A stretch of 64,000 bases of DNA from Candidatus Woesebacteria bacterium (GTDB taxonomy: Bacteria > Patescibacteriota > Microgenomatia > UBA1406 > HO2-37-13b), in the NCBI GenBank assembly GCA_018062135.1, contig JAGOSW010000001.1:73521-137520 (forward strand), in the 5' to 3' direction. Positions 15,693-63,196 of this stretch are shown here, piece after piece. The notes under the pieces are model-generated. The model did not search any database and was not told the DNA's origin. It was given only the letters and a program-made list of their open reading frames with translations. Each line of letters starts with the position of its first letter. The stretch's first letter is position 1. The position numbers and the translations under genes were made by a program.

Positions 15693-16499
15693 ATGGCAAA
15701 ACGACTCGTCTGTCTTAAGCTCGGAGGAAGCCTCATAACTGATAAAGCAAAGCCAATGGAGGCAAAGCTGAATGTTATTGAGACACTCGCTAATCAAATC
15801 GCAACCGCATTAAAAAAGGATCCTGATCTTCAAATAATTATTGGCAATGGTGCCGGCTCCTTTGGCCATTATGCCGTCATCACACATCATATGCAAAATG
15901 GCCTAAATGAGCCAGGAAAAAATATGGGTTATGCGTTGGTCCAACAAGCTGTTGCAAAGCTCAATAGATGTATAGTTGATGCGCTTCTAAAGGCAGGAGT
16001 TCCCGCAGTTTCTTATCAACCTTCGGCAACCCTTCTCGGAAAAGATGGCGCAATAAAAAACTTTCCCCTAGAATTTCTTGAAGAAGCTCTGGCGCACAAC
16101 ATTATTCCCGTCATGTACGGTGACATTATTTTTGATAAAGAAAAAGGTTCGATGATCGCCTCAACGGAGTTGCTTATTGGCGCCGCCGCAGCAGCTCTCA
16201 CGAAAAAAGGATATAAAATACATAAAGTAATTCATAACGGCGTTACGCAAGGTGTTCTTGATGCAAAGCAAAATGTGATCTCACGTATAACCAGGAAAAA
16301 TCTCGAGGATGTTAAGAAATTAATCTATGCAACAGACGGTTTCGATGTTACGGGTGGTATGTTGCACAAAATTGAAGAATCGCTCGTTCTTGCAGATCAA
16401 GGTATCCCTTCAATGATCATTAACGGAGTTTCAGAAAAAGATCTTCTTATGAAAGCCCTCCTAGACAAAGAGGTAAAAGGAACGCGCATCACTGCTTAA
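15693..16499 (+). CDS. Isopentenyl phosphate kinase (amino-acid-kinase fold)
   Basis: 'LKLGGSLITDK' and 'GNGAGSFGH' match the IPK signature. Confidence 0.75.
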   Translation: MAKRLVCLKLGGSLITDKAKPMEAKLNVIETLANQIATALKKDPDLQIIIGNGAGSFGHYAVITHHMQNGLNEPGKNMGYALVQQAVAKLNRCIVDALLKAGVPAVSYQPSATLLGKDGAIKNFPLEFLEEALAHNIIPVMYGDIIFDKEKGSMIASTELLIGAAAAALTKKGYKIHKVIHNGVTQGVLDAKQNVISRITRKNLEDVKKLIYATDGFDVTGGMLHKIEESLVLADQGIPSMIINGVSEKDLLMKALLDKEVKGTRITA

Positions 16500-16933
16500 T
16501 TGATTGGTTGAATTGATGCGCCTGGGTCATTTCCTCCTCCCGGATTAGAACCTCCAGGATTTGTACTACTACCACTATTTATTGATGGGATTTTAAATTG
16601 AAATCCACCGTTTTCAAATTTAATGGTCCCGAGGACGTTTGATGCAATGAAAGCCCAAATAGTAAGTGCGGCTACCATTATAAGAATGCCGATAATAGCA
16701 TTTAGAATTTTTCCCTGAGCTGCTGATATCTTTTCGCTATCTCCTCCAGAAGTAATCCAGTCAAGACCACCCCAAATAAGCTGAACAGCCAATATTATTC
16801 CAGCGATAGCAAAAATAAAGTTTAGACCAAAAGAAACGAGCCTTGTTATAGTTTCTGGTACTGTACCTGTATTAATTCCAGCTGGTCCTGGAGCCTTGAT
16901 TGGTTCGCCAAAAATATCATCGATACTACTCAT
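16496..16933 (-). CDS. TrbC/VirB2-like (T4SS-pilin-type) small membrane protein
   Basis: Two TM helices flank 'WGGLDWITSGGDSEKISAAQGKILNAIIGILI'. The tail is Gly/Asn/Pro-rich. Confidence 0.6.
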   Translation of the reverse strand: MSSIDDIFGEPIKAPGPAGINTGTVPETITRLVSFGLNFIFAIAGIILAVQLIWGGLDWITSGGDSEKISAAQGKILNAIIGILIMVAALTIWAFIASNVLGTIKFENGGFQFKIPSINSGSSTNPGGSNPGGGNDPGASIQPIN

Positions 16934-17232
16934 AATAAGAATGGAATTTCAAAAATTGTCGTAATTAAGCGTACTAGGAAAAAGCTAATAAATATTACTA
17001 CAATACCCAAACTTACATACAATATGGTGTTTTTTCCTGATTCAAGCTTTGCCTTATCTCCTCCTGCAGTAATAAAGAAGAAGGCGCCGCGAATTAATAC
17101 GATTAAAGCAATGAGTGTAATAACAACAAACCCGAAAGGAATAATTAAACCGAGCATTGTATTAATAGTTCCAAAACGAGCAGGAGCAAAATTGTCAGGA
17201 TTAATAAAGGGTGTAGGATTCATACTATACAT
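16930..17232 (-). CDS. TrbC/VirB2-like (T4SS-pilin-type) small membrane protein
   Basis: 'IRGAFFFITAGGDKAKLESGKNTILYVSLGIVVI' between two TM helices. It overlaps the downstream paralog by 4 nt. Confidence 0.6.
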   Translation of the reverse strand: MYSMNPTPFINPDNFAPARFGTINTMLGLIIPFGFVVITLIALIVLIRGAFFFITAGGDKAKLESGKNTILYVSLGIVVIFISFFLVRLITTIFEIPFLL

Positions 17233-17984: not shown

Positions 17985-19025
17985 ATGTACGACCCGCACT
18001 ATACCATCACTAACAATATTCTAAAAAACATCGGCATTATAGAAGCTGCTCGTGAGGTTATAGCAGATGCGCCACTTCTCCCGTTGTGGGAAAAAAGGTT
18101 CAGAGATGATGCGGTTATCCGTACTGCACATCATGGCACACATATTGAAGGAAACAGGCTAAACCTTACTGAAGCGCAAGATGTGCTTTTAGGAAAAGAT
18201 GTCGTTGGAAGGGCGCGCGATGTTCAAGAGGTTATTAACTATAGAAGAACACTGCAAGTTATTGAAGAAGAGTCACGTAAAGATTTACAGCGAATTACAG
18301 AAGGAACTATTAAGAAGCTCCATAAGTCGGTTGTTGATGGCATTTTATTGCCTGAGCAGATTGGGGAATATCGTACAAAGCAAGTTGTTATAAAAAATAG
18401 TGAAACAGGTGAAGTTACGTTTAGGCCTTCACCTCCGGTTGAAGTGCCGTTTTTAATGCGCGAATTTCTTTATTGGCTTAATAAGTCTGATGCGGATATT
18501 CACCCAATATTAAAGGCGGCGATTGCGCACCATGAGTTGGTACGCATTCACCCATTTATTGATGGTAATGGACGTGTGGGAAGGGCTCTTTCAACGCTCA
18601 TTCTTTTCTTAGAAAAATATGACATTCGCCAATTTTTTTCGCTTGAAGAATATTACGATAAAGATGCGGTCACCTATTATGAGCATTTGCAAAAGGCGAA
18701 CGCTGGCGATATGACCGCATGGCTCGAATATTTTGTGCTGGGTGTGGCGATTGAATTCGAGCGGATTAAAAAGAAAATCTTAAAATTATCAAAAGACACG
18801 TATCTTAAAGAAAAACTAGGAGGGCGCCAAGTCTTTCTTTCAGAGCGCCAGACAAAGATAATCGAGTATATCCAAAGTATTGGATATATGCAGAATCAGA
18901 TGTTTGGGGAGGTTGTTGACGATGTGTCTGAAGATACAGTTTTGCGTGATTTGACTGATCTTATTGAAAAAGGAATTGTGAAGAAAGTTGGGAAGACTAA
19001 AGCTTCACGGTATGTTATGGTTTAG
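17985..19025 (+). CDS. Fic-family protein with C-terminal winged-helix
   Basis: Fic motif 'HPFIDGNGRVGR'. An N-terminal 'HIEGN' inhibitory-helix-like segment is present. Confidence 0.9.
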   Translation: MYDPHYTITNNILKNIGIIEAAREVIADAPLLPLWEKRFRDDAVIRTAHHGTHIEGNRLNLTEAQDVLLGKDVVGRARDVQEVINYRRTLQVIEEESRKDLQRITEGTIKKLHKSVVDGILLPEQIGEYRTKQVVIKNSETGEVTFRPSPPVEVPFLMREFLYWLNKSDADIHPILKAAIAHHELVRIHPFIDGNGRVGRALSTLILFLEKYDIRQFFSLEEYYDKDAVTYYEHLQKANAGDMTAWLEYFVLGVAIEFERIKKKILKLSKDTYLKEKLGGRQVFLSERQTKIIEYIQSIGYMQNQMFGEVVDDVSEDTVLRDLTDLIEKGIVKKVGKTKASRYVMV

Positions 19026-30588: not shown

Positions 30589-30692
30589 AAATATCTCCTG
30601 ATCCTTGAATTAGGCTTAGCAAATCCCTATACTCTATTCCATATCTTTATGTGTTTCATGTGGTATAATACTATAAGTCGTAACTTTTAACG

Positions 30693-30920
30693 ATGAAGGC
30701 TATACAGTATCAACATAAGAACGTACTGTTTACACTATTGGCCTTAGGCGCGGTCTTTTTACTGGCTCCTTTTCTTCTTACCTTCGACTCTCTCTATTAC
30801 ATGATCGTTCGTCCCTCATGTTTACAATGTGGCGCACTTCCAGAATTTTTACGTAGTCAATCGCTCACAGCAGCAATGTTGTCGTCACTCAATGTTTATC
30901 AGTTTCCGGCGAAAAAATAA
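30693..30920 (+). CDS. Small membrane protein (75 aa)
   Basis: One TM helix. TGGTATAAT at 30661-30669 lies upstream. Its stop overlaps the next ATG (TAATG). Confidence 0.45.
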   Translation: MKAIQYQHKNVLFTLLALGAVFLLAPFLLTFDSLYYMIVRPSCLQCGALPEFLRSQSLTAAMLSSLNVYQFPAKK

Positions 30921-33900
30921 TGGCTAGTCCTGAACAAGGAGGAAATCCGGAAACACCACTCCAGCGAAAAATTCGTGAAACCCGTGAGTTTATTCGCCGT
31001 TTACTGGGTCAAGTAGATGCTGATCCGCAAAAAACTGACGCGCAAAAAAAACAAGAGAAAGAAAGCATGGCCAGAACATCGCAAGATGAATTAAAGAGAA
31101 AAGTAAGTGACTACGAGAAAATTCCTGAAAGTCAGAGAGATGATGACAAAATTGAGGAAGACATGCTTACTCATGTAAATGAATTGGCAGAATTGGTTAA
31201 GAATAAAGTTGTCCCCCATGTGCCAGAGATTACTGAAGCTGTCGTTATTGCTCTTGCGACGAAGAAATTCGATAAGAAAAAAGCACTATTAATAGGATCA
31301 ATTGTAGGCGAAATTGTGGATTCTCCAGAATTTAAGTCAGTCGCAAATCGTGGTATTGATGAAGTGCGGGGGAGTTTGAAGAATCTGGCATCTCGATTGC
31401 GTGGTGAGGGGCATGGTGATATGGCGGATACAATTGATGGTGAAGTTGCAGCTTCAGAGCCTCCTAAGGAGCCACCTAAGCCTCCAGAGGGACCACCGGG
31501 AGGACCGCCAGGAGCACCAGAAAGACGCGAAGATGAAGAAGACGATGATCGCGAAGACATCGAAAAATATTTAAACAAGCATTATCACCAATTAAAAGCA
31601 ACGAGAGACGCCAGTGGAAATATTATAGAAGGCACTGAAAACTGGCTTGATATCGAAACTCAAAAAAAAGGCGGATACTATGGACTTACTCAGGAGCTGC
31701 AAAGAAGTTTGCTGGGCGCGGCAATTATTCGCCAGATTGATCTGACGCGCCGCCAAAGAGTTGTACTTCGTGCATTTGATGGCGGCGATGAATTTAGAAC
31801 ATATTTTAGAGCCACGCGCGAAATGCTTGCCGATAAGGCAACTGAGGCAGGTAAGCCGACTTCTCCTGACGATATTTCTATTAATACTGCGTATAAAGCC
31901 ATGAGTAATGATGTTAAAGATATCGTCAGAGAATTCTTATCGACACTCAGTGGGACCGTTGATCAATCAAGTCAAAAAGAGACGCAATATATAGGTATGC
32001 TGGTTGAGCGTATTTCGCGCAACATCAGAACAGAAATAGCAGGCGACACTGAGATGGATGTTCCAGGGAAGATTAAATTAGAAGGTACAGATGCGCTCTT
32101 ACCTTCTGATAAACAGACGGAGTCAAATAGAGGTCCAGGCAAAGATGGAATGTTAATCGGTGGTATGAATGAATATCTTGTACCTCGTAATGTAGAAGTT
32201 TCGATGAGCGAGGCGCTTGTTGATGACCTTGCGTCCACTATAACTAAATTGCAAAAGATTACTGTTGGCTTCCATAATGCTCGTACTTTTGCTTATTCTG
32301 GCGGTAGCCATAAAGATTTCGGTGAACAGCTTAAGAAAGATGGTGTTAAGCCAGCAGATTTGGTTTGGACCTTTAAAAAAGAAGAAGATGTAAATTTAGG
32401 TTACAACTTACTTATTCAGAGTCTCCAACAACTAAAGTCGCAGACTGCTAGGACTGTCACAGAGCGCTATGGCTCAATGTCTAAAGTCGGAGGCCTTACG
32501 GAAGCTGAATATCGCGCCTGGATTCAGATGCTCGCGTTGGATGATGACTATAGAAAAGCTGAATCTGATCATAAACTCGCCCAAGATGCACAAGACAGTA
32601 TTCGTGAGAAGAAGAATAAAAAAGCTATGGACCGCATAAAGCAAAAGAAATTGCGTGCTATTAAAATGGCAAGTGGTATCGCATGGGGACATAGTCGAGA
32701 AGCTTGGGGTGTGCTTCTCGATGCGAAGCTACTTGTAAAGAGAAGTGGAAAAGGTACTGAAGATGAACCATTTACTATTGGTCAACATTATGGCGGCTCA
32801 CAATCATCTGGAATTGAGAAAATGCTTGCAGAACTTCATCCGGAGATGCTTGACGATCGCTGGGGAAGAGATAAAATTGCACCGATTTGGATGTTGTATC
32901 AACCGAGAGATCTTGAGGCCGCGGATACTGGGTGGAAGAGCAGCGAACCATTTTCACATACACGCATTTACGATCTATATGATCAAAACCAGAAAGCTTT
33001 TTACAGTGGGCGTTCTGATGACCTTGCTGACTTTGATGATGAGTATATAACCGTTCAGGAGTTTGCAAATGTGACTTCGCTCCATATGCTACGACGTGAA
33101 AGCTGGCGCCTTCGTCAATATGATCTATATTCAGATAGATATGCGAAAGAAGCAGAAGATAAAGGCCTGCAAGGAATGAAAAAACACGAGTATATGACTA
33201 AGCGCCTCATGATACGAGGCGGTCCTCGCTTAGTAAAAATGTACATAGATAAGAATGTGAAGGATTTGATGAAAGATGATAAAAAAATGGATCGAAAGCA
33301 CGTACGGAGACTTGAGAAGGCAAGTAAAGCTGAAGAAGCAGAAGAAAAAACAGGTATGGAAACTAATGGTCGGCGCAAGGCGCAAGCAGAAGGTCGAGCG
33401 GCTAAACAACACGGCCTTGAGACATATTATGAAAAATTCATATTTGATGATCTGTCGAAGCGTTTCGCGACGAGTTTAATCGGTTTTGAACAACCACGAT
33501 ACATGCCACAGAACGAGAATACGCTTTATACTGCACTTAATTCTTATGTAGAGAAAATTCCCTTCTTTCAAGATCTTCCAGCAAATGTATTGCAGACAGA
33601 GATTTATCCTGTATATATTGATGCAATACATACGATAGAGCGGAACAAATGGGAAAAGTATACAAAAAGTAAAGACGGCGATACGGAAGCACAAATAAAA
33701 CGCCAGCTCGAGGATCCACAAGATCTTACGGATGCTGACTTTGATGATCCGGATATTAAATCTAAATTAAGAACGCACTATAAACTTAATCAAGAGCGCA
33801 TTGGAGAGATTACTGACGATAAACATAAACTTAATGCTGATTTTGAAGAATATTATGAATCCCTAAAAGGTTTCCATAGAAAATTATTGCAAGAGCGCGA

Positions 33901-34843
33901 TAAAGATAGGTATAACAGAGTATCAATTCGCAAAAGAAAGAAAGAGACCTTGGCAAAGCGCTATGCACATATGCTGGCAATTGATCAGGGCGGTATAAAT
34001 CAAGCAATGGGTGGTTCGTACTTTGATTTTTCACTCGAAGTACAACAGGGTGGTATTGACGCAGTCAATAGATTGAGTTCAGATGTAAATAAATCAGCAG
34101 AAATGACAGAGGCGTGGGAAAAGCTTACTGGCGATGGGGGTGCTCTAGAGAAATTTGCGCAGAGTGCTGCTGAGGAGGAAGATGATATTCATAGCGGTGC
34201 TAAATCAATAGCTGAAGCCGTTGCGGGTATTGTTAAATATCCCTACTCGTTTAGTCCTGACCAAGGTAACGAATATAAGGTACGTCATGAAATCTTTTGG
34301 GGTCGTGCATTTGCTCGTCCGGAAGCTTTTAAAGGCCTTTTTGGACCAATGCACGAAATTAATTGGAAGAATTTAAGAGGTGGCCAATCGAGTCTTTTTG
34401 CTGAATATTATCAAAAGGTTCTTGGACGAACTGATGTAACCACACTTGATTCAGATCAAATTCGTATTATGTTAAATACCATGGAGCATGAATTGCGCAT
34501 ACCACCTAAGAAGTTAGAAGTGGCTGAATATGAAAGCGTGGCCGACATGAATATTGCTCGTCGATATTTACGTAATGCAGAAGATGCAATGCGACATATT
34601 CCATTAGTTGGTCCTACTTTACGTGGAGTATTACGTTCCACGACGAGTATGTTTACTGAGGCGGGGGTTAAAAAATATCGTACACATGAATATAACCAGA
34701 ATATGGCGTTACGCGAGTTAGGTGCTCGAAAGCGAGATATAATTCGCGAAAAGGCAATATCAGTAGATTCATTAATAATGCTTTTTGCAGGATTACTTGC
34801 TTATGGGAAAGCCGCCGATGAGGCAAATAATAAAAAACATTAG
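30920..34843 (+). CDS. Giant charged protein (1307 aa), unknown function, C-terminal hydrophobic anchor
   Basis: Uninterrupted ORF, Lys/Glu/Asp/Arg-rich, with the Pro/Gly tract 'EPPKEPPKPPEGPPGGPPGAP' followed by an acidic run. The C-terminus contains 'LIMLFAGLLAYG'. Confidence 0.8.
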   Translation: MASPEQGGNPETPLQRKIRETREFIRRLLGQVDADPQKTDAQKKQEKESMARTSQDELKRKVSDYEKIPESQRDDDKIEEDMLTHVNELAELVKNKVVPHVPEITEAVVIALATKKFDKKKALLIGSIVGEIVDSPEFKSVANRGIDEVRGSLKNLASRLRGEGHGDMADTIDGEVAASEPPKEPPKPPEGPPGGPPGAPERREDEEDDDREDIEKYLNKHYHQLKATRDASGNIIEGTENWLDIETQKKGGYYGLTQELQRSLLGAAIIRQIDLTRRQRVVLRAFDGGDEFRTYFRATREMLADKATEAGKPTSPDDISINTAYKAMSNDVKDIVREFLSTLSGTVDQSSQKETQYIGMLVERISRNIRTEIAGDTEMDVPGKIKLEGTDALLPSDKQTESNRGPGKDGMLIGGMNEYLVPRNVEVSMSEALVDDLASTITKLQKITVGFHNARTFAYSGGSHKDFGEQLKKDGVKPADLVWTFKKEEDVNLGYNLLIQSLQQLKSQTARTVTERYGSMSKVGGLTEAEYRAWIQMLALDDDYRKAESDHKLAQDAQDSIREKKNKKAMDRIKQKKLRAIKMASGIAWGHSREAWGVLLDAKLLVKRSGKGTEDEPFTIGQHYGGSQSSGIEKMLAELHPEMLDDRWGRDKIAPIWMLYQPRDLEAADTGWKSSEPFSHTRIYDLYDQNQKAFYSGRSDDLADFDDEYITVQEFANVTSLHMLRRESWRLRQYDLYSDRYAKEAEDKGLQGMKKHEYMTKRLMIRGGPRLVKMYIDKNVKDLMKDDKKMDRKHVRRLEKASKAEEAEEKTGMETNGRRKAQAEGRAAKQHGLETYYEKFIFDDLSKRFATSLIGFEQPRYMPQNENTLYTALNSYVEKIPFFQDLPANVLQTEIYPVYIDAIHTIERNKWEKYTKSKDGDTEAQIKRQLEDPQDLTDADFDDPDIKSKLRTHYKLNQERIGEITDDKHKLNADFEEYYESLKGFHRKLLQERDKDRYNRVSIRKRKKETLAKRYAHMLAIDQGGINQAMGGSYFDFSLEVQQGGIDAVNRLSSDVNKSAEMTEAWEKLTGDGGALEKFAQSAAEEEDDIHSGAKSIAEAVAGIVKYPYSFSPDQGNEYKVRHEIFWGRAFARPEAFKGLFGPMHEINWKNLRGGQSSLFAEYYQKVLGRTDVTTLDSDQIRIMLNTMEHELRIPPKKLEVAEYESVADMNIARRYLRNAEDAMRHIPLVGPTLRGVLRSTTSMFTEAGVKKYRTHEYNQNMALRELGARKRDIIREKAISVDSLIMLFAGLLAYGKAADEANNKKH

Positions 34844-34865
34844 CAAATCAACTTTTTGGTATAGT

Positions 34866-35684
34866 ATGGATATGATTCGCAGAGCTATTCTAGTCATTAT
34901 TGCGTTATTTGTAATTCTTGGTACTCCTTCACAAGTCCATGCCTTTGGGGCGGATATAGACATAAGTAGAACGATACCAGGGATTAATTGTGGCCTTCCA
35001 GGTTTGGAATCAAACCCAAAAGCGGCACAATGTTGTTATTATGCTCCATTTAAATCCATCGACAAAGTACCTTGGATTATAGAAAAAATTGGAGGTATCG
35101 GTTTACCTCTGTTGCCGAATCCGTTAAAAGCTTGGAATAGAACCAGAGAATCACTACTTAAAACCCAAGAGGAACATGCCTCAAAAAGACCGTGTGAAGT
35201 AGGGTTTCCTAAGCCCGATGGCATATCGCCCTCAGATCCTGCTTGCCGTTGCGAAATTCCACCCGATGGAGTGAGAGAAAATCTTGTTGCACTTTGTCGA
35301 GATCGATTTGATCCGGTAAAGAGAGGAAAAGGCGTAGTGCTTTCAAGTAATGAAATTTCGCGTTTGAATGCCGAAAAAGATGAGTGTATGAGGTGCGGAA
35401 GAGATAATGGATATTATAGCGCAATTGGTTGTGTCCGTTTTAGTCTTACCGACTTCATTACGCGCTGGGTATTTGGTTTTGGCGTCGGCGTTGCCGGTCT
35501 TTTTGCTTTGGGATGTATAATATTGGCTGCTATAAAGATTCAACTATCACAAGGGCAAGCAGAAACTGTGCAGCAGTCAAGAGAAATGATGACTTCCTGC
35601 ATACTTGGATTACTACTTATCGTATTCTCAGTATTCCTCTTGAATTTTGTAGGGGTGACCATACTTCCTGGATTATTCTTATAG
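34866..35684 (+). CDS. Secreted Cys-rich protein fused to a TrbC/VirB2-like pilin C-terminus
   Basis: Signal peptide 'MDMIRRAILVIIALFVILGTPSQVHA', 14 Cys in total with 12 in the mature ectodomain (after signal-peptide cleavage, before the first C-terminal TM helix), and the C-terminal '...AAIKIQLSQGQAETVQQSREMMTSCILGLLLIVF' between two TM helices. Confidence 0.6.
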   Translation: MDMIRRAILVIIALFVILGTPSQVHAFGADIDISRTIPGINCGLPGLESNPKAAQCCYYAPFKSIDKVPWIIEKIGGIGLPLLPNPLKAWNRTRESLLKTQEEHASKRPCEVGFPKPDGISPSDPACRCEIPPDGVRENLVALCRDRFDPVKRGKGVVLSSNEISRLNAEKDECMRCGRDNGYYSAIGCVRFSLTDFITRWVFGFGVGVAGLFALGCIILAAIKIQLSQGQAETVQQSREMMTSCILGLLLIVFSVFLLNFVGVTILPGLFL

Positions 35685-35685
35685 A

Positions 35686-37332
35686 TCAGTGCGTGCTCCC
35701 AGCACTTTTAGCAGCTTTAAAAATTCCACGATCGAGTAATTTACCTAACGGTGATGTTTTGCCCACCAGTTCGCTTAATACTATAAGTCCTTTCGGTTTA
35801 GTAAACATAGCCTTAACAGGCTCAGATGTGCCTTGGAAGAATGTTCCTAAGCTCAAAGCCGGCACCGACATAGTTTGCGTATTGAGTTTTTCTTTTACTA
35901 ATTTAATAAGATCGGGCATTGTCCATAAAATACCAAATGAAACTATCACTCCAAGGTTTTCGGGGTTTATTGAAGCTACGAAGGGCAAAGAAAGAAGTTG
36001 TCCATTTGAAATGGCATTATTAAATGCCCCACTAAGCAGGAATATGGTGATCATAAGGGGGAATGTTAAAAGCTCTACACATATTGTCTGGATCCATGGA
36101 ATGAATACATTTGATCCAGGTAAAGCCTCACCAACTAAAATAAGCGGAGAAAGCATAACGTAAAACAACAACTTAATGTACGTTCTGAACGTTAATATTA
36201 GTAGTCGCATAAAAACCCAGAGGACCGAGAGAGCAATTACTAATCCGAGAAGAATAACAGGGAGCGCATACATGATTTTACCTATAGGCTCAATTAACAA
36301 GATCATTACCATAATAAAAATGATCATTGGAATAGTTGGTGTTTGCCAGCCTACCGTAAAAAACCCAAGTTTTCCACCTATCCATGCAAAAAGCATGATT
36401 CCTAATATGTTTCCGCTTATATGCGTAATAAAAATACGTATAGTATCACCAAACATGCCAAGGAGTGCGTAAGGTAAGTTGTAAACTAGATTTATAACAG
36501 CGTACACGCCACCACTAATACTTCCCTCATAATTACCGATTCCTAAGTTGAGTAAATCAATAGTTGACGGGCTTACATAGCGATCAAGCATAGTTGACAA
36601 TGTAAGATCGGGGCTTATGAGTGGTCCAAAGGTCACAATAATAATACCTGTCATAATATACATGACGTCAACCATAAATCCTGCGATAGCAAAGGAAAAG
36701 TTAATGAGTATCATGGTAATAATAATTTTTGGCAAAGCGTTCTCGAGTTTTATTGCATGTTGTGGATCCATTCGTGTACGGAACATGATCATAAATCCAC
36801 TGATAATCATTGCTAAAGCAATTATCAAGAAAGCAATATCACGAAGTTTTTTCCAAATATGAATAAATGGTGCTAGTCCTGCGAATCCAAGTCCTTCAGC
36901 AGCATATGAATCTGGAACAAATCCCGCCTCATCAAGAGAATGAAGAACATAGTATGAGCCTAATGCTGGAGGGTTAGAATAAGGTGTGGCGATAAGTCCA
37001 CCAATCTTACCCATAACACTTTTGTCAAAATTTTCTGTTGAAAAAGTGTCGTAGTTTGAATCGCATACCATACCAAACATTGCACAATATACGTCCTTTG
37101 ATGTGGTGAGTATTCTTTTTTCCATTTCATTTGCCGGCTTTGCATTATCGTACATTCCCCCAAATGTTTTTTGCTGGGCTATGAGTTTTTCTTCTGGTCT
37201 TTTTACTTCAATGTCGTAAGGAGAGGTTAACTGAGCGAAGAGTGCAAAAGCACCAAAGATCACAAATCCAAGGAGTATTGAATTTCGAACTCCCTTTTTA
37301 AATGACACAAATTTAGAAAGCAAGCTTTGCAT
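35686..37332 (-). CDS. Large polytopic membrane protein (VirB6/TrbL-like topology, unverified)
   Basis: 548 aa. An N-terminal TM segment and an ectodomain of about 130 aa are followed by at least 8 TM helices. Confidence 0.45.
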   Translation of the reverse strand: MQSLLSKFVSFKKGVRNSILLGFVIFGAFALFAQLTSPYDIEVKRPEEKLIAQQKTFGGMYDNAKPANEMEKRILTTSKDVYCAMFGMVCDSNYDTFSTENFDKSVMGKIGGLIATPYSNPPALGSYYVLHSLDEAGFVPDSYAAEGLGFAGLAPFIHIWKKLRDIAFLIIALAMIISGFMIMFRTRMDPQHAIKLENALPKIIITMILINFSFAIAGFMVDVMYIMTGIIIVTFGPLISPDLTLSTMLDRYVSPSTIDLLNLGIGNYEGSISGGVYAVINLVYNLPYALLGMFGDTIRIFITHISGNILGIMLFAWIGGKLGFFTVGWQTPTIPMIIFIMVMILLIEPIGKIMYALPVILLGLVIALSVLWVFMRLLILTFRTYIKLLFYVMLSPLILVGEALPGSNVFIPWIQTICVELLTFPLMITIFLLSGAFNNAISNGQLLSLPFVASINPENLGVIVSFGILWTMPDLIKLVKEKLNTQTMSVPALSLGTFFQGTSEPVKAMFTKPKGLIVLSELVGKTSPLGKLLDRGIFKAAKSAGSTH

Positions 37333-37373
37333 TACTATTCATTCTAAAGGAAATGTATGAGGGTGTGCAAGCT

Positions 37374-37838
37374 CTAACGATATTCGATAAGTAGGCCAGC
37401 AGCCTGGGTAGGAGAAAGGCCTAATTCAATCAGCCATTCATTAAGTTTAGCTTCTGAGAGAGCTCTATCTTGGCCTTTTATGGTAGCAATGAACGAAAAA
37501 TCTGGATTCCCTTCAGGTCGCATCTTTCCATCGATGCGGAAATACTGATTTTCAAAGGGAATTTTATTGTACAGATAGATATCTGGGTAGTCTTGTCTTT
37601 GGCCTTGGTCAACCTCTTCATCAATATCAATGGGATCAGCCGGCCCATCTTGCTGAGGTGTTTCTGTAATGTTTGGATTTGTTGAGCCAGTACTACCTTC
37701 TATGATTGGTGGGTTTTGGCTGTCTAGAGGCTTTTCAGAAGATACGTTTCTATTCAGTGAGAATACAAAGGCACCAATAAGAATGATAAGTAAAATACCT
37801 GAACTTAAAAGTAAGCCGATTAATATTCTGTTTCTCAT
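37374..37838 (-). CDS. Membrane-anchored hypothetical protein (154 aa)
   Basis: An N-terminal TM helix, a Pro/Asp-rich linker and a small globular C-terminus. Confidence 0.5.
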   Translation of the reverse strand: MRNRILIGLLLSSGILLIILIGAFVFSLNRNVSSEKPLDSQNPPIIEGSTGSTNPNITETPQQDGPADPIDIDEEVDQGQRQDYPDIYLYNKIPFENQYFRIDGKMRPEGNPDFSFIATIKGQDRALSEAKLNEWLIELGLSPTQAAGLLIEYR

Positions 37839-37850
37839 ATGGTGTATATT

Positions 37851-39347
37851 TTATCTTTTTCTAAGCCAGCCTGCAAAGTTGCGTTCATTTCTTTCCTGGC
37901 CAATTTGATATGTTCTTTTTCGAACACAGCCCCAGCATGGGTGCCTTGTACCATCTGGAAAGACTTCGAGGAAGTTCGCTTCCATAACGGTAAATGCGCT
38001 TGAATTGCTCTCAACTATGTACGCAACATGTCCCCATGGCATTCCTGGTGCCTTATTCCATACGGCAATATCATTAGGAGCGGCAGGTTGTGTCCTTGAG
38101 TCAATAAGTAGGTACGCGTTGTTGCTTGTTGCGCGCTGATATGCATGGCCTCCAGGACCGTTGTAGGAGTTGCCAGATGCCGCTGCTACAGCTGCTTCTG
38201 TGAAGCCAACACATTGCAGTCGCTCGTAATTTGTTGCACTTGTGACAATTTCATCTTTTGTTTGTTTGTCGTTTTGTGATTTGCTAAAAGCAGCCATGCA
38301 CTGTGCTGCGTTATAGTTGGAAACAAGGCCATTTTCGACTACTTGACCATAATCATAATTTGGGAATTTGCAGTTTGCTCTTATAAAATCAACTAAATCC
38401 ACAACTTCCTGAGCATCGCTGTTACTTACGGGTGGAAGCGGTGCCGGCGGTTGTGATGGATTTCCTCCACCTGGGTTACCTGGCTGCACATTTTGTGGTG
38501 GCTTTATTGGTGGTACGGGATCGCCAATGGTTGTTCCTGGTTCACATGGTTCACAAAAAGAACCAGCACCCCAACTGCATTGGACGCCACTTCCTGGAGC
38601 CGCACAGACACCATGCTTATGACACACACGTGTTCCTGCTTGATCTCCCTGGCCACATGATTCTCTATAGGGTTCGCTACATGATTGCCCAGTTGTTTTA
38701 CAAAGACCGTCTGAGCCGCCCCCGCCTGGTTCACCTGGCTGCGTAGGATCTTCAGGATTCTCATCGACCTCTTCTTCGTCTCCGTCAGTCAAGCTTAAAA
38801 TACTCTTTAAAGTTTTGTTAATAAGATCAGAAATTTCACTTGCAGAATCTATGCGCGAAGCACCACCACTCCTTAAGTTATCTGTGCACTCGGTAGAGGT
38901 TGAATGTACTATCTTGCCTACAGACTGTCCATCACGCAGCACATCGAGCTCAATACGGCCACAATTTACACTTTGGTGCGTAATTTTCGCGGCAGTTTCT
39001 TTTGCGTTAATAGTGACGCTACCCGTTCCAACTTCATAAAAGTAATCATCTTGCATTCCTTGGATACAGGGAGTGTTAATGCCTTGTTTTAGGCACCATC
39101 TTGCGGTATAGGTTAGTATTATGGGGCTACTTGGCGCTCTATCAGTCTGTCCAATCATCTTCCATTCCCATGTTTCATTTGTCGAAAGAGGGTCGCGAAC
39201 ATTCGTTAGAGTAACTTTAAGCGCTTCATCACCGGCTCGTGCTCCTGTAAGGTTTTTTTGCACATAGGTATAGACAGCAATAAGAAGACTGATTAAAAAT
39301 ATAATAATGAAAGGTAAAGCGGTACGAAGTATTTTCTTATTATTCAT
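37851..39347 (-). CDS. Membrane-anchored protein with Cys/Pro-rich linker and C-terminal CHAP peptidoglycan hydrolase domain
   Basis: CHAP catalytic pattern 'LQCVGFTEAAV' (Cys) ... 'WGHVAYIVE' (His). Confidence 0.7.
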   Translation of the reverse strand: MNNKKILRTALPFIIIFLISLLIAVYTYVQKNLTGARAGDEALKVTLTNVRDPLSTNETWEWKMIGQTDRAPSSPIILTYTARWCLKQGINTPCIQGMQDDYFYEVGTGSVTINAKETAAKITHQSVNCGRIELDVLRDGQSVGKIVHSTSTECTDNLRSGGASRIDSASEISDLINKTLKSILSLTDGDEEEVDENPEDPTQPGEPGGGGSDGLCKTTGQSCSEPYRESCGQGDQAGTRVCHKHGVCAAPGSGVQCSWGAGSFCEPCEPGTTIGDPVPPIKPPQNVQPGNPGGGNPSQPPAPLPPVSNSDAQEVVDLVDFIRANCKFPNYDYGQVVENGLVSNYNAAQCMAAFSKSQNDKQTKDEIVTSATNYERLQCVGFTEAAVAAASGNSYNGPGGHAYQRATSNNAYLLIDSRTQPAAPNDIAVWNKAPGMPWGHVAYIVESNSSAFTVMEANFLEVFPDGTRHPCWGCVRKRTYQIGQERNERNFAGWLRKR

Positions 39348-53891: not shown

Positions 53892-53944
53892 AATTAAGAA
53901 AATATTAAGCGGTTGAGCGTAGCATATATTGAACTTAAAGTGTG

Positions 53945-54027
<83 letters not shown>

Positions 54028-54075
54028 TATCGCTGTTTATTGCAAAGCAGCAAGCAAAATTATAGCATAAGAAGT

Positions 54076-55074
54076 ATGAATGTTGGATTCTTCGAAGTAA
54101 ACGAATGGGAAATTCCGATAATTAAGAAGCATTTTCCCCATGCGCTTATATCAGCAGATAAACTTCTCCCAGAGAATGCAAAGAAATACGCTCATTTAGA
54201 GGCAATATCGACGTTTATATATTCACAGTTAAACTCATCAGTTCTTGTGCAGTTTCCTCGCCTCAAGTGTATCGCAACACGCTCAACAGGATATGACCAT
54301 ATCGACATAAAATATTGTGCGCGCAACGATATAGCCGTTTCTAACGTTCCGCGTTATGGCGATCGTACAGTCGCTGAGTTCGCATTTGCTCTATTGTTAT
54401 CTTTGACACGAAGAATTTATGAATCCGTCGCAATGACAAAGTTAGGTAGTTTTGATAACGATAATTTTACAGGTATTGATCTTCACAATAAGACCCTGGG
54501 CATAGTGGGTTTTGGGAAAATCGGCCAAGAAGTAGCCAAAATAGCCAAAGGCTTTGAGATGAAAATCATTGTGTATAATCGAAGCCATGATCAAGCGCTT
54601 GAAAAAGAGCTTGGATTTAAGTACGTCGAACTCGATTATCTGCTTAAACATGCCGACGTAGTCACGCTTCATCTGCCTCTTATGCCTGAAACAACGCATA
54701 TCATTAACAAGAAAAATATTCTTGAGATGAAAAAAGGCGTATACCTTATCAATACAGCTCGAGGAGGCTTGATAGAAACAGAAGCCCTTCTCATTGGCCT
54801 AGAGAAAGGTATTATAGCTGGTGTCGGACTTGATGTTCTCGAAGAAGAAGCCGCTCTAAGTGAGGAGGCCGAGCTCATCTCAGCAGAATTTAGGAAAAAA
54901 GTTGATCTCCAAACACTCGTTATGGACCATGTCCTTGTGAGACATCCTAAAGTTATTGTAACACCACATAACGCATTTAATAGCAAAGAAGCAATTCACA
55001 CAATACTTTTAACGACACTTCAGAATATAACCGCACATAATGAAGGAACTCCCCAGAACACCGTTTCAGTTTAA
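54076..55074 (+). CDS. D-isomer-specific 2-hydroxyacid dehydrogenase
   Basis: NAD-binding 'GIVGFGKIGQEVAK' and a catalytic His region 'VTPHNAF'. The ATG at 54076 avoids the tRNA. Confidence 0.9.
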   Translation: MNVGFFEVNEWEIPIIKKHFPHALISADKLLPENAKKYAHLEAISTFIYSQLNSSVLVQFPRLKCIATRSTGYDHIDIKYCARNDIAVSNVPRYGDRTVAEFAFALLLSLTRRIYESVAMTKLGSFDNDNFTGIDLHNKTLGIVGFGKIGQEVAKIAKGFEMKIIVYNRSHDQALEKELGFKYVELDYLLKHADVVTLHLPLMPETTHIINKKNILEMKKGVYLINTARGGLIETEALLIGLEKGIIAGVGLDVLEEEAALSEEAELISAEFRKKVDLQTLVMDHVLVRHPKVIVTPHNAFNSKEAIHTILLTTLQNITAHNEGTPQNTVSV

Positions 55075-60479: not shown

Positions 60480-60815
60480 TTATTTTACTATCCACACTAG
60501 GAAAGAATTTACTATTGAGAGCACTAGAGCAAAGAGAATTGCGTGCCAAAAATTAGGCACATTAAAGCCGTCAACAATATTGCTTGCGAGAAGGATAAAA
60601 AGTCCATTAATCACAAATGTAAATAATCCAAGTGTTATTACATTGATGGGAAGGGTAAATATGAGCACAATTGGCTTAATAAACATATTGATACCCGCCA
60701 ATACTATAGCAACAAGCAATGCCGTCGTAAGATTAGCTAATTCGACACCAGGAAGAATTTGAGCTGTAAGAAAGATCGCTATTGCATTTACGATGAGCTT
60801 GATGAGTATAATCAT
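60480..60815 (-). CDS. YvlD/DUF360 (phage-holin-4_2-like) membrane protein
   Basis: 'NAIAIFLTAQILPGVEL...' with four TM helices. The start could instead be 60827. Confidence 0.7.
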   Translation of the reverse strand: MIILIKLIVNAIAIFLTAQILPGVELANLTTALLVAIVLAGINMFIKPIVLIFTLPINVITLGLFTFVINGLFILLASNIVDGFNVPNFWHAILFALVLSIVNSFLVWIVK

Positions 60816-60860
60816 GCTAGCTTCCATAATACTGAATATGATATTATATTGCAAGAATCT

Positions 60861-61484
60861 ATGAAGAAATTGATGACCTTAGAATATGTAATCGCTGCGG
60901 TGCTCATTGTCTCCGGCATGTTTATGATGTTGAATGGCTATAAAACCGTCGCTCTCCACATGGAACAAGGTAAGACACAGCCATACATTACTAACTTTAA
61001 GCATGCAGATAAAGTTATTGTCGCAAATCTCCCTACCGCAAAGCCAAAAGTTGATAAGCTTTCTGTGAAAGTTGACCAAGTAGTCTTTGAAAAGGTTTAT
61101 ACAACTAGCTTTCAGAATTTTACTGATCTATCAGATGTGACCATTGGAAAAGATATGGATGGACATATTACAGATGGTAAAACTAGCTCGACGATAAAAA
61201 CACAATACGATCCAGTGTTAAAACAATTTAAATTGTATGGCACCTTTACTCATATGCCAAAGCTTCGCGAAGGCTTTTACTATGAGGGTTGGGTTGTTCG
61301 CAAGGAGCCATTTAGTATGTATAGCGTTGGAAAAGTAATGGTTATTGATGAAGAGATGACAAGTGTGTACGTTACGGAAACAGATCTGACCGATCACACA
61401 ATGTTCATTCTAACGCTTGAGCATAATGATGGAAACCCAAATCCTGAAGTACAGATTCTGGAAGGGGAATTCAAAAAACTATGA
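60861..61484 (+). CDS. Membrane-anchored protein with RskA-like (anti-sigma-K C-terminal) domain
   Basis: One TM segment. The C-terminus 'YYEGWVV...MFILTLEHNDGNPNPEVQILEG' resembles RskA_C. Confidence 0.4.
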   Translation: MKKLMTLEYVIAAVLIVSGMFMMLNGYKTVALHMEQGKTQPYITNFKHADKVIVANLPTAKPKVDKLSVKVDQVVFEKVYTTSFQNFTDLSDVTIGKDMDGHITDGKTSSTIKTQYDPVLKQFKLYGTFTHMPKLREGFYYEGWVVRKEPFSMYSVGKVMVIDEEMTSVYVTETDLTDHTMFILTLEHNDGNPNPEVQILEGEFKKL

Positions 61485-63196
61485 TCCTTGTTGCATTCGC
61501 CTTTTTAGCAGGTCTTGTAACAATTCTTTCGCCTTGCATTCTTCCTATTTTGCCAATAGTTTTATCGGGATCACTGCAAAGTGGTAAAAGTCGTCCGCTA
61601 GGGGTAATTACGGGTTTTATTGCAAGCTTCACCTTTTTCGCAGTATTTTCATTTTCTTTAGCGAATGCGTTTGGTTTTTCAACAGAAATCTTAAGAAACT
61701 TTGCCGTTGTCTTGTTGATTTTATTTGGACTAGCGACGTTTACTCCAAAACTACAGCTTTTTCTTGAAAATATTACATCGCGTTTTAGCTCTTTAGGACA
61801 AGGAAAAAAGAGAACAGGATTTAGTGGCGGTTTTATCTTAGGGATAACATTGGGGCTCATTTGGACGCCATGTGTAGGTCCAATATTAGCGTCGGTTTTA
61901 ACTCTTGCAGCAACAAGTACTATTACATTCCAATTAATTTTAATCACTTTTTCATATTCCTTAGGAACCGCAATTCCCTTATTCTTTATTGCGTATGGTG
62001 GAAAAAGAGCCCTTACAACACTTCCCTTCTTTAAAAAGAATGCAGAAAAAATTCAGAAAACATTTGGCGTTTTAATTATTCTCACTGCGTTTTTAATATT
62101 CTTTAATCTTGATAGAAAATTTCAGACATATATTCTTGACGTATTCCCTATGTATGGGGAAGGGCTTACAGCATTTGAGAATAACGAGAAAGTCGAAAGT
62201 GAGCTGAATAAATTAAAAAATAATGATGGCGGATTTATGGATGGAGTTCTTTCTCAGAAAACACCAGCACCGAATAGGGATTTTATTGGTGCAACAAGGT
62301 GGTTGCAATCGGAACCTTTAACACTTGACGCGCTTAAGGGTAAAGTGGTGCTTGTCGATTTTTGGACATATACCTGCATAAATTGTATTCGCACCTTTCC
62401 ACACCTAACTGGATGGTATGAAAAATATAAAGATGATGGATTAGTAATTATTGGTGTGCATACACCTGAGTTTGAATTTGAGAAAAATCAAAAGAATGTT
62501 CTAAATGCGCTTGAAGAGTATGGCATTACATATCCAGTCGTTCAGGATAACGATTATAAGATTTGGAACAGCTATAGTAATCGCTACTGGCCAGCGCATT
62601 ATCTAATCGATAAGGATGGAAACATTCGTTATACCCACTTTGGAGAGGGTGAATATGAAAAAACGGAAAAGGTTATCCAAGAATTGCTGAGAGAATCAGG
62701 GAAGGATGTTGATACAGACATATTAGACTTGGAGAATTATGCGCCGACAATGCGTAATACGCCGGAAACATATTTAGGATATGGAAGAATGGAGCGTTTT
62801 GCTTCACCGGAGAAAATTCTGAGTGATATAAATGCAAAGTATTCAGTTCCATCACTCATTGAATCGGATTTTTTCGCATATGGAGGAGTATGGAATATTA
62901 CAGATGAATACTCGGAATCTTCAAAAAATGCAGTTATTGATTTGTCGTTTAAAGCGAAAGAGGTATTTCTTGTGATGCGACCAAAAGATCTCAAGAAACC
63001 AGGGGAAGCCATAATTTTAATTGATGGAAAGCCAATTTCAGCTAGTGAAGCTGGTGTAGATGTGAACAATGGCATAGTGAATATTGATCAAGATAGATTA
63101 TATAAGCTAATTAAATTTGGTGAGCAAAAACCTTCGCGTGTTACAATTCAGTTCAATGATGCAGAAATCCAAGTCTTTGCCTTCACCTTTGGTTAA
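61481..63196 (+). CDS. DipZ-like thiol:disulfide interchange protein (CcdA/DsbD TM domain + thioredoxin-like domain)
   Basis: 'LSPCILPILP' and 'TPCVGPIL' TM cysteines, and the thioredoxin 'WTYTCINC' motif. Confidence 0.85.
   Translation: MILVAFAFLAGLVTILSPCILPILPIVLSGSLQSGKSRPLGVITGFIASFTFFAVFSFSLANAFGFSTEILRNFAVVLLILFGLATFTPKLQLFLENITSRFSSLGQGKKRTGFSGGFILGITLGLIWTPCVGPILASVLTLAATSTITFQLILITFSYSLGTAIPLFFIAYGGKRALTTLPFFKKNAEKIQKTFGVLIILTAFLIFFNLDRKFQTYILDVFPMYGEGLTAFENNEKVESELNKLKNNDGGFMDGVLSQKTPAPNRDFIGATRWLQSEPLTLDALKGKVVLVDFWTYTCINCIRTFPHLTGWYEKYKDDGLVIIGVHTPEFEFEKNQKNVLNALEEYGITYPVVQDNDYKIWNSYSNRYWPAHYLIDKDGNIRYTHFGEGEYEKTEKVIQELLRESGKDVDTDILDLENYAPTMRNTPETYLGYGRMERFASPEKILSDINAKYSVPSLIESDFFAYGGVWNITDEYSESSKNAVIDLSFKAKEVFLVMRPKDLKKPGEAIILIDGKPISASEAGVDVNNGIVNIDQDRLYKLIKFGEQKPSRVTIQFNDAEIQVFAFTFG

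Follow-up and report, generated by a model that had tools for sequence, protein, structure and literature searches.

We analysed a stretch of 64,000 nucleotides (nt) from the genome of a Candidatus Woesebacteria bacterium (contig JAGOSW010000001.1, positions 73,521 to 137,520; hereafter, the window), in which six genes, named A to F here, form two convergent operons encoding membrane and secreted proteins. On the plus strand lie A (30693-30920), encoding a small membrane protein of 75 amino acids (aa) with one transmembrane segment (TM); B (30920-34843), encoding an orphan giant of 1307 aa; and C (34866-35684), encoding a secreted protein of 272 aa. Facing them on the minus strand are D (35686-37332), for a polytopic membrane protein of 548 aa; E (37374-37838), for an anchored protein of 154 aa; and F (37851-39347), for a membrane-anchored cell-wall hydrolase of 498 aa with a CHAP domain. 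An earlier reading of the sequence alone (the original prediction) had viewed this cluster, with two small VirB2-like pilin paralogs encoded elsewhere in the window, as the envelope-spanning part of an apparatus that was either related to type IV secretion systems (T4SS) or novel; its coordinates for the six open reading frames (ORFs) matched ours. Hydropathy gave one TM each for A, E, and F. The G+C content of the module was like that of its flanks.

In 80 fetched loci, ORFs were called and then searched with six profiles, one per protein. A C-type gene converged on D in 74 of the 82 D-bearing loci, a recurrence in independent loci that exceeds chance, and the gap between the two stop codons had a median of 15 nt over these 74 loci, with several pairs overlapping. 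A giant of 1025-1425 aa followed C on the same strand, with 59 distinct full-length examples, while D was preceded by an anchored protein of 135-170 aa and that one by a larger anchored protein. In 32 loci the family hidden Markov model (HMM) for A located a 65- to 80-aa member that shares the giant's strand and lies upstream of it; the distance to the giant was up to about 150 nt in most of these and up to 2 kb in a few. The original prediction had staked itself on two points, namely that the six genes would keep their company and order in related genomes and that their products would not fall into unrelated, well-characterized families. The arrangement was kept across the fetched loci, and the products did not turn out to be members of such families. 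The six-gene cluster is a real, deeply conserved chromosomal module, not a mobile element, and it is vertically inherited. We found no description of the A-B-C/D-E-F module in the literature.

Relatives of D were encoded in at least 543 GTDB species-representative genomes, and its profile matched 6142 clusters at E<=1e-3 among 1.84 billion representative proteins. Chromosome OZ246401.1 encodes a D of 62% identity. A word index returned 87 homologs of D, the named ones coming from Microgenomates, Roizmanbacteria, and metagenome-assembled genomes (MAGs) of the 'Patescibacteria group'. Many MAG records (L001, L011-L013, and others) are titled 'uncultured Gammaproteobacteria bacterium', and their gene content is plainly that of Microgenomates within the Candidate Phyla Radiation (CPR); these titles are evidently placeholders of no use for taxonomy. 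The window itself comes from a CPR genome of the Microgenomates. One flank of the module, with leuS, rpmH, yidC, and jag, was syntenic across loci. The other flank carries, in the window lineage, an NTP-transferase gene, a CAP-domain gene, ftsX, ftsE, and prfA; in other lineages it carries a ClpB-like gene, small pilins, an amino-acid kinase, and recF. The ClpB/ClpC-like AAA+ gene (576-1610 aa) was divergent beside the hydrolase slot in 38 loci, with a Walker A motif in 38 of 38. Examples are found in L008 (5373-8393), L009 (2854-7686), L010 (4268-7093), and L062 (5837-8710), the L009 protein being 1610 aa long and hence possessing extra domains. This adjacency could be plain housekeeping synteny or could mark a functional partner.

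The region between jag and A, a conserved non-coding block at 30596-30680 on the plus strand and 5' of A, was near-invariant among relatives even though the encoded proteins were only 59-88% identical. It contains a promoter-like site, TTGAAT-17-TATACT, at 30605-30633, followed by an extended -10 element, TGGTATAAT, which was read in the sequence at 30661-30669, where the plus operon had been predicted to start, and which continues as ACTATAAGT. The string TG(G/T)TATAATACTATAAGT was invariant in an upstream alignment of loci L011, L013, L004, L002, and L015. Conservation of this kind suggests that the block is a regulated promoter or leader. Within the plus operon, the stop codon of A and the start codon of B share one base in TAATG (30918-30922), as originally described. 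The convergent junction (35682-35688) likewise reads in the raw sequence as described before: TAG, the stop of C, at 35682-35684; a single A; and TCA, the stop of D seen on the plus strand, at 35686-35688. The accompanying statement that no terminator is possible there was inferred rather than observed. A terminator scan found no more sites than in shuffled sequence, and folding of the junction was unremarkable (z -0.16 and +1.18). Because no hairpin rises above background at the junction, an antisense overlap between the transcripts of the two operons is plausible from the sequence; the idea also fits the conserved, tight spacing of C and D and the lack of a terminator-like structure.

The ORF of protein C was confirmed, and its start was corrected: the frame is open from TTG 34785, and ATG 34866 is the more likely start. 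Translation from there gives 272 aa, opening with a signal peptide of Sec type, MDMIRRAILVIIALFVILGTPSQVHA/FG (…TPSQVHA/FG). Hydropathy and the alignment placed two C-terminal TMs at about residues 197-225 and 246-268, after an ectodomain of about 170 aa that had 10 invariant cysteines in the alignment of 43 family members. The loop between the TMs is charged (QxSQGxxE, with Q226, S228, G230, and E233 invariant), and the whole hairpin was near-invariant in the 43 members (FGxGIGLAGGxALLCIIYAAF, xMQxSQGNPEKxKKAQE, and xTSCIMGLMLIIFSVFILRLIGV). C therefore has the layout of a VirB2/TrbC pilin, which consists of a signal peptide, two hydrophobic helices, and a short charged loop. The window protein alone scored 19.5-19.7 bits (E 1e-3) against the Pfam family PF18895 (T4SS_pilin), below the cut-off of 26.6; across the family, 42 of the 43 members matched PF18895 at E<=0.01, the best at 1.4e-7, in support of the earlier proposal of a VirB2-type pilin module at the C-terminus. 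By phmmer, C was related to its positional equivalents in distant loci at E 1e-25 to 1e-34. The hairpin also matched NCBIfam NF045849 weakly (E 0.013; 15.2 bits against a cut-off of 40). Given the PF18895 matches and the invariant cysteines and hairpin, C is, as predicted from sequence, a VirB2-type pilin module with a disulfide-rich head. A type IV pilus of the kind related to type II secretion was considered and set aside: C has an ordinary Sec signal peptide and its hydrophobic module is C-terminal, not N-terminal, the window has no PilB/PilT-type ORF with a Walker A motif, and no PilC/GspF protein was among the Foldseek matches of D.

The two small pilin paralogs are encoded on the minus strand at 16496-16933 (145 aa) and 16930-17232 (100 aa). 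They had been singled out correctly: the first scored 32.9 bits against PF18895, and both matched the C-family HMM (E 4e-7 and 1.5e-6, respectively). They are probably the major pilins that accompany the module. The pair adjoins an amino-acid-kinase gene, as it does in other Microgenomates, and in L008, L010, and L062 only the ClpB-like gene separates the pilin and kinase set from F-E-D. In the window, about 13 kb lie between the kinase/pilin trio (15693-17232) and the module (30661-39347), and this interval contains UppS, a Fic/DOC-HTH (helix-turn-helix) protein, an ATP-dependent DNA ligase, glycosyltransferases, DUF2298, LeuRS, YidC, and Jag. Since the trio is close to the module in other Microgenomates, its distance here implies a rearrangement. 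Cysteines on the outer side of the membrane are unusually frequent in the module products: C has 10 that are invariant, D two that are conserved, F a linker rich in Cys, and A a CxxC motif. A DsbD-TM/thioredoxin fusion is encoded at 61481-63196, and together these features hint that this CPR bacterium has disulfide chemistry of a dedicated kind.

In protein D, the TM at the N-terminus is followed by a helical domain of about 110 aa that lies outside and contains the conserved C83 and C90, then by at least 6 more TMs and a cytoplasmic tail; the total of at least 7 TMs comes from hydropathy and from an AlphaFold2 (AF2) model built on a 73-sequence alignment (pLDDT 85.2, pTM 0.72). When this model was searched with Foldseek against 350,542 PDB chains, the best seven matches were TrwI/VirB6 chains of R388 and Legionella DotA, the top chains including 8rtd_L, 8rt9_F, and 7o3v_F/G/J for TrwI/VirB6 and 9ngy for DotA. 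Transporter folds of the MATE type reached a probability of 0.04 at most. D had no match in Pfam or NCBIfam. The VirB6/TrbL-like character first ascribed to D thus finds weak support in its polytopic form and its top structural matches, and none in any sequence or profile match. We regard D as a candidate VirB6-like pilin-assembly platform.

A location next to pilin genes is a further VirB6 trait, and D shows it in two independent layouts. One is the convergent D/C pair of the 74 loci. The other is L173 (1111-16113), where a divergent D homolog (HMM E 3e-114) stands beside an array of nine pilin-like genes, mirroring the VirB6-like gene beside a pilin array in Southlakia epibionticum (PMC10633639, Table S2). 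The flanking 1141-aa and 1370-aa proteins of L173 had no Pfam match and no detectable relation to the B family. In Kaiserbacteria, proteins of 731-788 aa encoded between ksgA and rpsL (L141 4191-6386; L153 3616-5982) matched the D profile weakly but genuinely, with E of about 1e-8 when the two proteins were searched alone and about 2-4e-5 in the search of locus ORFs. No Pfam domain was found in these proteins or their neighbours, nor any bridge to VirB6 or VirB4. They may bridge D and the VirB6-like proteins of other CPR classes.

In protein F, a TM precedes an unassigned domain of about 160 aa; a Gly/Pro/Cys-rich linker then leads to the CHAP domain at the C-terminus (residues 372-458). The CHAP assignment scored 32.9 bits against PF05257, above the cut-off of 26, and the domain also matched PHROGs endolysin families (E 4e-6). 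Among 22 examples of the hydrolase slot, 12 were Peptidase_C39_2 and 4 were CHAP, and M15_4, M74, and SLT also occurred. F was accordingly confirmed as an anchored CHAP hydrolase, and a slot that always holds some wall hydrolase is consistent with the VirB1-like role proposed for it. Non-orthologous replacement of the slot enzyme is what would be expected of an accessory 'hole-cutting' enzyme of the VirB1 type. By their domains, F and its equivalents would be VirB1-type hydrolases encoded with the machine. We also considered the FtsEX-PcsB system, to which F is a poor fit: the match to NF046104 (E 0.0015) is confined to the CHAP part, and its 17.8 bits fall far short of the cut-off of 450.

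Protein E has an N-terminal TM anchor, a Pro/Thr-rich linker, and an orphan domain of about 70 aa, and profile searches of Pfam, NCBIfam, and PDB gave no match. It was joined by hhalign to the 135- to 170-aa proteins at the same position in distant loci (probability 97, E 6e-11), and many of the hydrolases encoded alongside carry its domain at their N-terminus. Against the VirB8-like proteins PrgL and TcpC, hhalign aligned the TM only, the E domain being just about 70 aa.

The giant B is highly charged (16% K+R and 17% D+E), and a PPKPPEGPPGGPPG linker lies near residue 190. Neither a signal peptide nor a Walker A motif is present, and there is no TM apart from a single conserved hydrophobic stretch at the extreme C-terminus that is followed by a Lys-rich tail; B would therefore be a cytoplasmic, tail-anchored protein. 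At the sequence level, only 8 relatives were found among 5.8 billion proteins, and a second search with the family alignment added one. Its positional equivalents, present in 59 loci, form four groups; phmmer failed to connect these, but hhalign joined them with probabilities of 99.7-100 and E of 5e-27 to 1e-75, and B is thus one fast-evolving, always-present family. Searches of Pfam, NCBIfam, PADLOC, PHROGs, and PDB with phmmer and with a 59-sequence profile gave no match. Likewise, hhalign found no match between the B profiles and any of the large pCF10 and pCW3 transfer proteins, VirB4 and VirD4 included. The giant had been described as having no recognisable counterpart, and all of these searches came back empty as well. 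An AF2 model of residues 230-1307 from 8 sequences had a pLDDT of 57.6 and contained helices only; its Foldseek matches to FANCI, karyopherins, and nucleoporins were non-significant and were discarded as generic helical-repeat noise. Some Roizmanbacteria-type loci have extra genes between the giant and jag (L008 16396-17888), one of them for a 116- to 125-aa protein that ends, like the giant, in a hydrophobic stretch and a tail, here rich in Gly and Lys. Protein A consists of a TM and a conserved FD..Y....RPxCLxCG motif containing a CxxC. It had no match in Pfam or NCBIfam, and hhalign was negative against PrgI (probability 1%), TcpD, and TcpE, so that A does not resemble VirB3/PrgI.

The closest parallels come from the T4SS-like clusters of other Patescibacteria. 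Wang et al. (2023, PMC10633639) showed that S. epibionticum needs its cluster to grow as an epibiont; the genes encode lysozyme/peptidase proteins, VirB4, PrgI, an NTF2 protein, six PF18895 pilins, and a pair of proteins, each about 1000 aa long, that have VirB6-like and ARM-like parts (PMC10633639, Table S2). Quinonero-Coronel et al. (2025, PMC12102498) reported VirB4 in 2417 of 3035 Patescibacteria genomes and placed it next to MPF-FATA systems. For Microgenomatia, the same authors described VirB6 homologues as 'scarce', 'suggesting extreme sequence divergence', VirB3 as lying mostly away from virB4, VirB2 arrays as abundant, and T4SS genes as dispersed (PMC12102498). Because their neighbourhood analysis was centred on virB4, a module located away from that gene would escape profiling.

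Like the Patescibacteria T4SS (SEML1_0006-0019), the module is chromosomal, belongs to a monoderm CPR bacterium, has several divergent VirB2-like pilins of PF18895, and combines a polytopic, putatively VirB6-like protein by pilin genes with wall hydrolases, very large function-unassigned proteins with helical domains (ARM-like in Southlakia), and the lack of a relaxase. In contrast to that system, VirB4, TrsD, and PrgI were not found in or near the module, although PrgI and TrsD were not tested for every small ORF of the window; D has about 550 aa instead of about 1000 and is missed by VirB6 profiles; one pilin of the module is fused to a domain in which 10 cysteines are invariant; and no counterpart of A, B, or E has been described. 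The location also differs, the module lying by jag-yidC-rpmH-leuS and the Patescibacteria T4SS directly after dnaA-dnaN-recF.

More distant systems share fewer parts. The VirB6/VirB2/VirB5 stalk of R388 (7o3v, 8rt9, 8rtd) likewise combines a polytopic platform with two-helix membrane pilins, and its exposed VirB5 head may be the parallel of the C head. However, there is no sequence similarity, the TM-score does not exceed 0.36, the module lacks an outer-membrane complex, VirB5 is soluble and separate where C is fused to a pilin, and the platform of the module is encoded away from the ATPase. The MPF-FATA systems (pCF10 Prg/Pcf and pCW3 Tcp) are monoderm and include an anchored VirB1 analogue of the CHAP/lysozyme type and a polytopic VirB6 analogue; unlike the module, they have no pilin and always have VirB4, a coupling protein, and a relaxase. 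Profiles of A to E gave no hhalign match to PrgD/H/I/J/K/L, PcfC, or TcpA-H. A pilin-like protein of a Mycoplasma integrative and conjugative element (ICE; NF045849, Mbov_0395) resembles C in its weakly matching hairpin and in being a VirB2-like protein of a wall-less/monoderm lineage, but it has no Cys-rich head, its context is an ICE, and the 15.2 bits are far below 40.

VirB4 is the defining protein of T4SS. The original prediction had reported no VirB4, VirD4, VirB11, or relaxase in the window, and Pfam scans of the large ORFs agreed, showing housekeeping proteins only. A Walker A motif was present in four window ORFs of at least 150 aa, namely FtsE, IF2, the DsbD fusion, and a 241-aa ORF (60759-61484) that lay outside the family-library searches. 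When 12 module-bearing genomes, all draft MAGs, were cross-checked in Table S1 of PMC12102498, VirB4 was listed for 9. This is the base rate of the phylum (80%), so it neither proves nor disproves that the module depends on VirB4. The contig start of Roizmanbacteria GW2011_GWA2_35_19 was found to be rpoB-rpoC, not VirB4.

Taken together, the recognisable parts point to a Patescibacteria T4SS-like pilus system, while half of the conserved proteins, above all the giant, are unexplained. The reading that we favour, and to which we give an even chance, is that the module supplies the membrane and surface parts of a pilus or contact apparatus of the Patescibacteria type, derived from a T4SS and here in its Microgenomates form, with VirB4 encoded elsewhere. 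In such an apparatus, F would open the peptidoglycan locally; the domain is evident, and the role is suggested by the slot always holding some wall hydrolase. D may form a membrane platform that gathers the VirB2-like pilins. C would be exported by Sec/YidC and held in the membrane by its VirB2-like hairpin, with the disulfide-rich head outside, and could serve as a specialised pilin (tip, cap, or base) or as an adhesin, the small pilins at 16.5-17.2 kb being the putative bulk subunits. E might tether the hydrolase or the wall to the platform, and A and B may act as a lineage-specific scaffold or regulator at the cytoplasmic face or membrane. More speculatively, the CxxC of A might serve the extracytoplasmic cysteines of C, D, and F. 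Energy would come from VirB4/TrsD encoded elsewhere in the genome, when present at all.

Several results weigh against this assignment. The Foldseek matches of D to VirB6 and DotA had probabilities of 0.6-0.92 with E values of 0.13-0.36 and target-normalised TM-scores of only 0.27-0.36. Pfam TrbL (PF04610) was matched by 0 of 73 D-family members at E<=1, the D profile had no match among PDB sequences, and hhalign gave probabilities below 1% against PrgH and TcpH. The A, B, and E families matched nothing in any T4SS tested. No VirB4 or other secretion ATPase was found in the 64-kb window, nor did any of the more than 85 contexts examined have one within 10 kb of the module, and the whole 31.5-kb module contig of a VirB4-positive genome, from rpoB to leuS, had no VirB4 gene. 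VirB4 was also undetected in 3 of the 12 cross-checked drafts (OLB23, UTCPR1, and GW2011_GWC2_34_23); Microgenomates OLB23 is the closest named relative of the window. The VirB2-type module in C supports the proposal of a T4SS-related apparatus; that it is part of a T4SS at all is put in question by VirB4, which is never nearby.

A different reading of the same results is that the module is an autonomous, CPR-specific envelope or attachment machine that borrows the VirB2-like hairpin and works without VirB4. D would then be its own assembly or insertion platform, C a disulfide-rich adhesin held by the hairpin, and B, possibly with the ClpB-like AAA+ protein of other lineages, a scaffold or the means of energy coupling. 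The lack of VirB4 within 10 kb in over 85 contexts and its non-detection in 3 of 12 genomes would be explained, as would the three orphan families with their always-present giant, the ClpB-like gene that adjoins the module in 38 loci, and a D without sequence similarity to VirB6. Yet VirB4 occurs in 9 of 12 module genomes, close to the phylum rate of 80%, and the three negatives are draft MAGs; PF18895 pilins of Saccharibacteria sit in an essential T4SS cluster that contains VirB4; VirB6 and DotA are the best structural matches of D; and ClpB is a housekeeping chaperone that is not adjacent in the window lineage. We consider an autonomous machine possible but doubtful. A more particular form of the idea, which we hold to be rather unlikely, is a self-contained Microgenomates envelope machine without a VirB4-type ATPase, in which giant B, possibly with a ClpB-like AAA+ protein, would drive or organise a VirB6-like platform and the disulfide-rich pilin fusion to build a surface filament or host-contact structure. 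If true, its mechanism would be unlike that of any known secretion or pilus system.

It is quite unlikely, in our view, that the module is a complex for cell-wall growth or division, made of a hydrolase, a polytopic protein, and a cytoplasmic scaffold, and not a surface filament. Its vertically inherited, core-genome site among housekeeping genes would suit such a complex, as would the adjoining yidC-jag (Jag being a KhpB/EloR-type regulator) and the constant presence of a wall hydrolase. FtsX and FtsE are encoded 3-4.6 kb downstream in the window lineage, but FtsEX is not adjacent in other lineages. F has some weak resemblance to PcsB in its CHAP domain (NF046104, E 0.0015), but the match of 17.8 bits compares with a cut-off of 450. 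Moreover, C is a pilin-family protein in 42 of 43 members, and D matches no SEDS, MurJ, or GT-C fold, with a MATE-type probability of at most 0.04 against 0.8-0.92 for VirB6. That the module is left over from a conjugative element, prophage, or defence island, or is carried by one as cargo, is highly improbable: a pilin-like protein with a CHAP hydrolase is typical of conjugative elements, and the CHAP domain matches phage endolysin families, but there is no relaxase, coupling protein, integrase, or VirB4, the G+C content is flank-like, the chromosomal neighbours are the same in genomes whose proteins are only about 30% identical, PADLOC gave no match, and the PHROGs matches are endolysin families over the CHAP domain only.

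The CPR, or Patescibacteria, make up a large share of bacterial diversity, and its members appear to live attached to other microbes. To our knowledge, the only member that has been tested genetically needs a T4SS-like system and VirB2-like pilins to grow. As the membrane and surface half of a Microgenomates apparatus of that kind, the module would provide a concrete candidate for the missing VirB6-type platform of Microgenomatia, a very large class, and the Cys-rich pilin C could be its host-contact piece. A, B, and E add three unannotated conserved families present in hundreds of species, and the module raises the question of whether VirB2/VirB6-type assembly can occur apart from, or without, VirB4. 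Its products are also defined targets for complex structure prediction, surface proteomics, and the interpretation of cryo-electron tomography.

Two minor observations were made elsewhere in the window. At 17985-19025, adjoining UppS and the pilin pair, lies the gene for a Fic/DOC-domain protein that ends in a DeoR-type HTH. A tRNA-Tyr (53944-54027) underlies the start of a 381-aa ORF on the opposite strand (53929-55074); because the listed ORF starts over the tRNA, the real gene upstream of nusA must start later.

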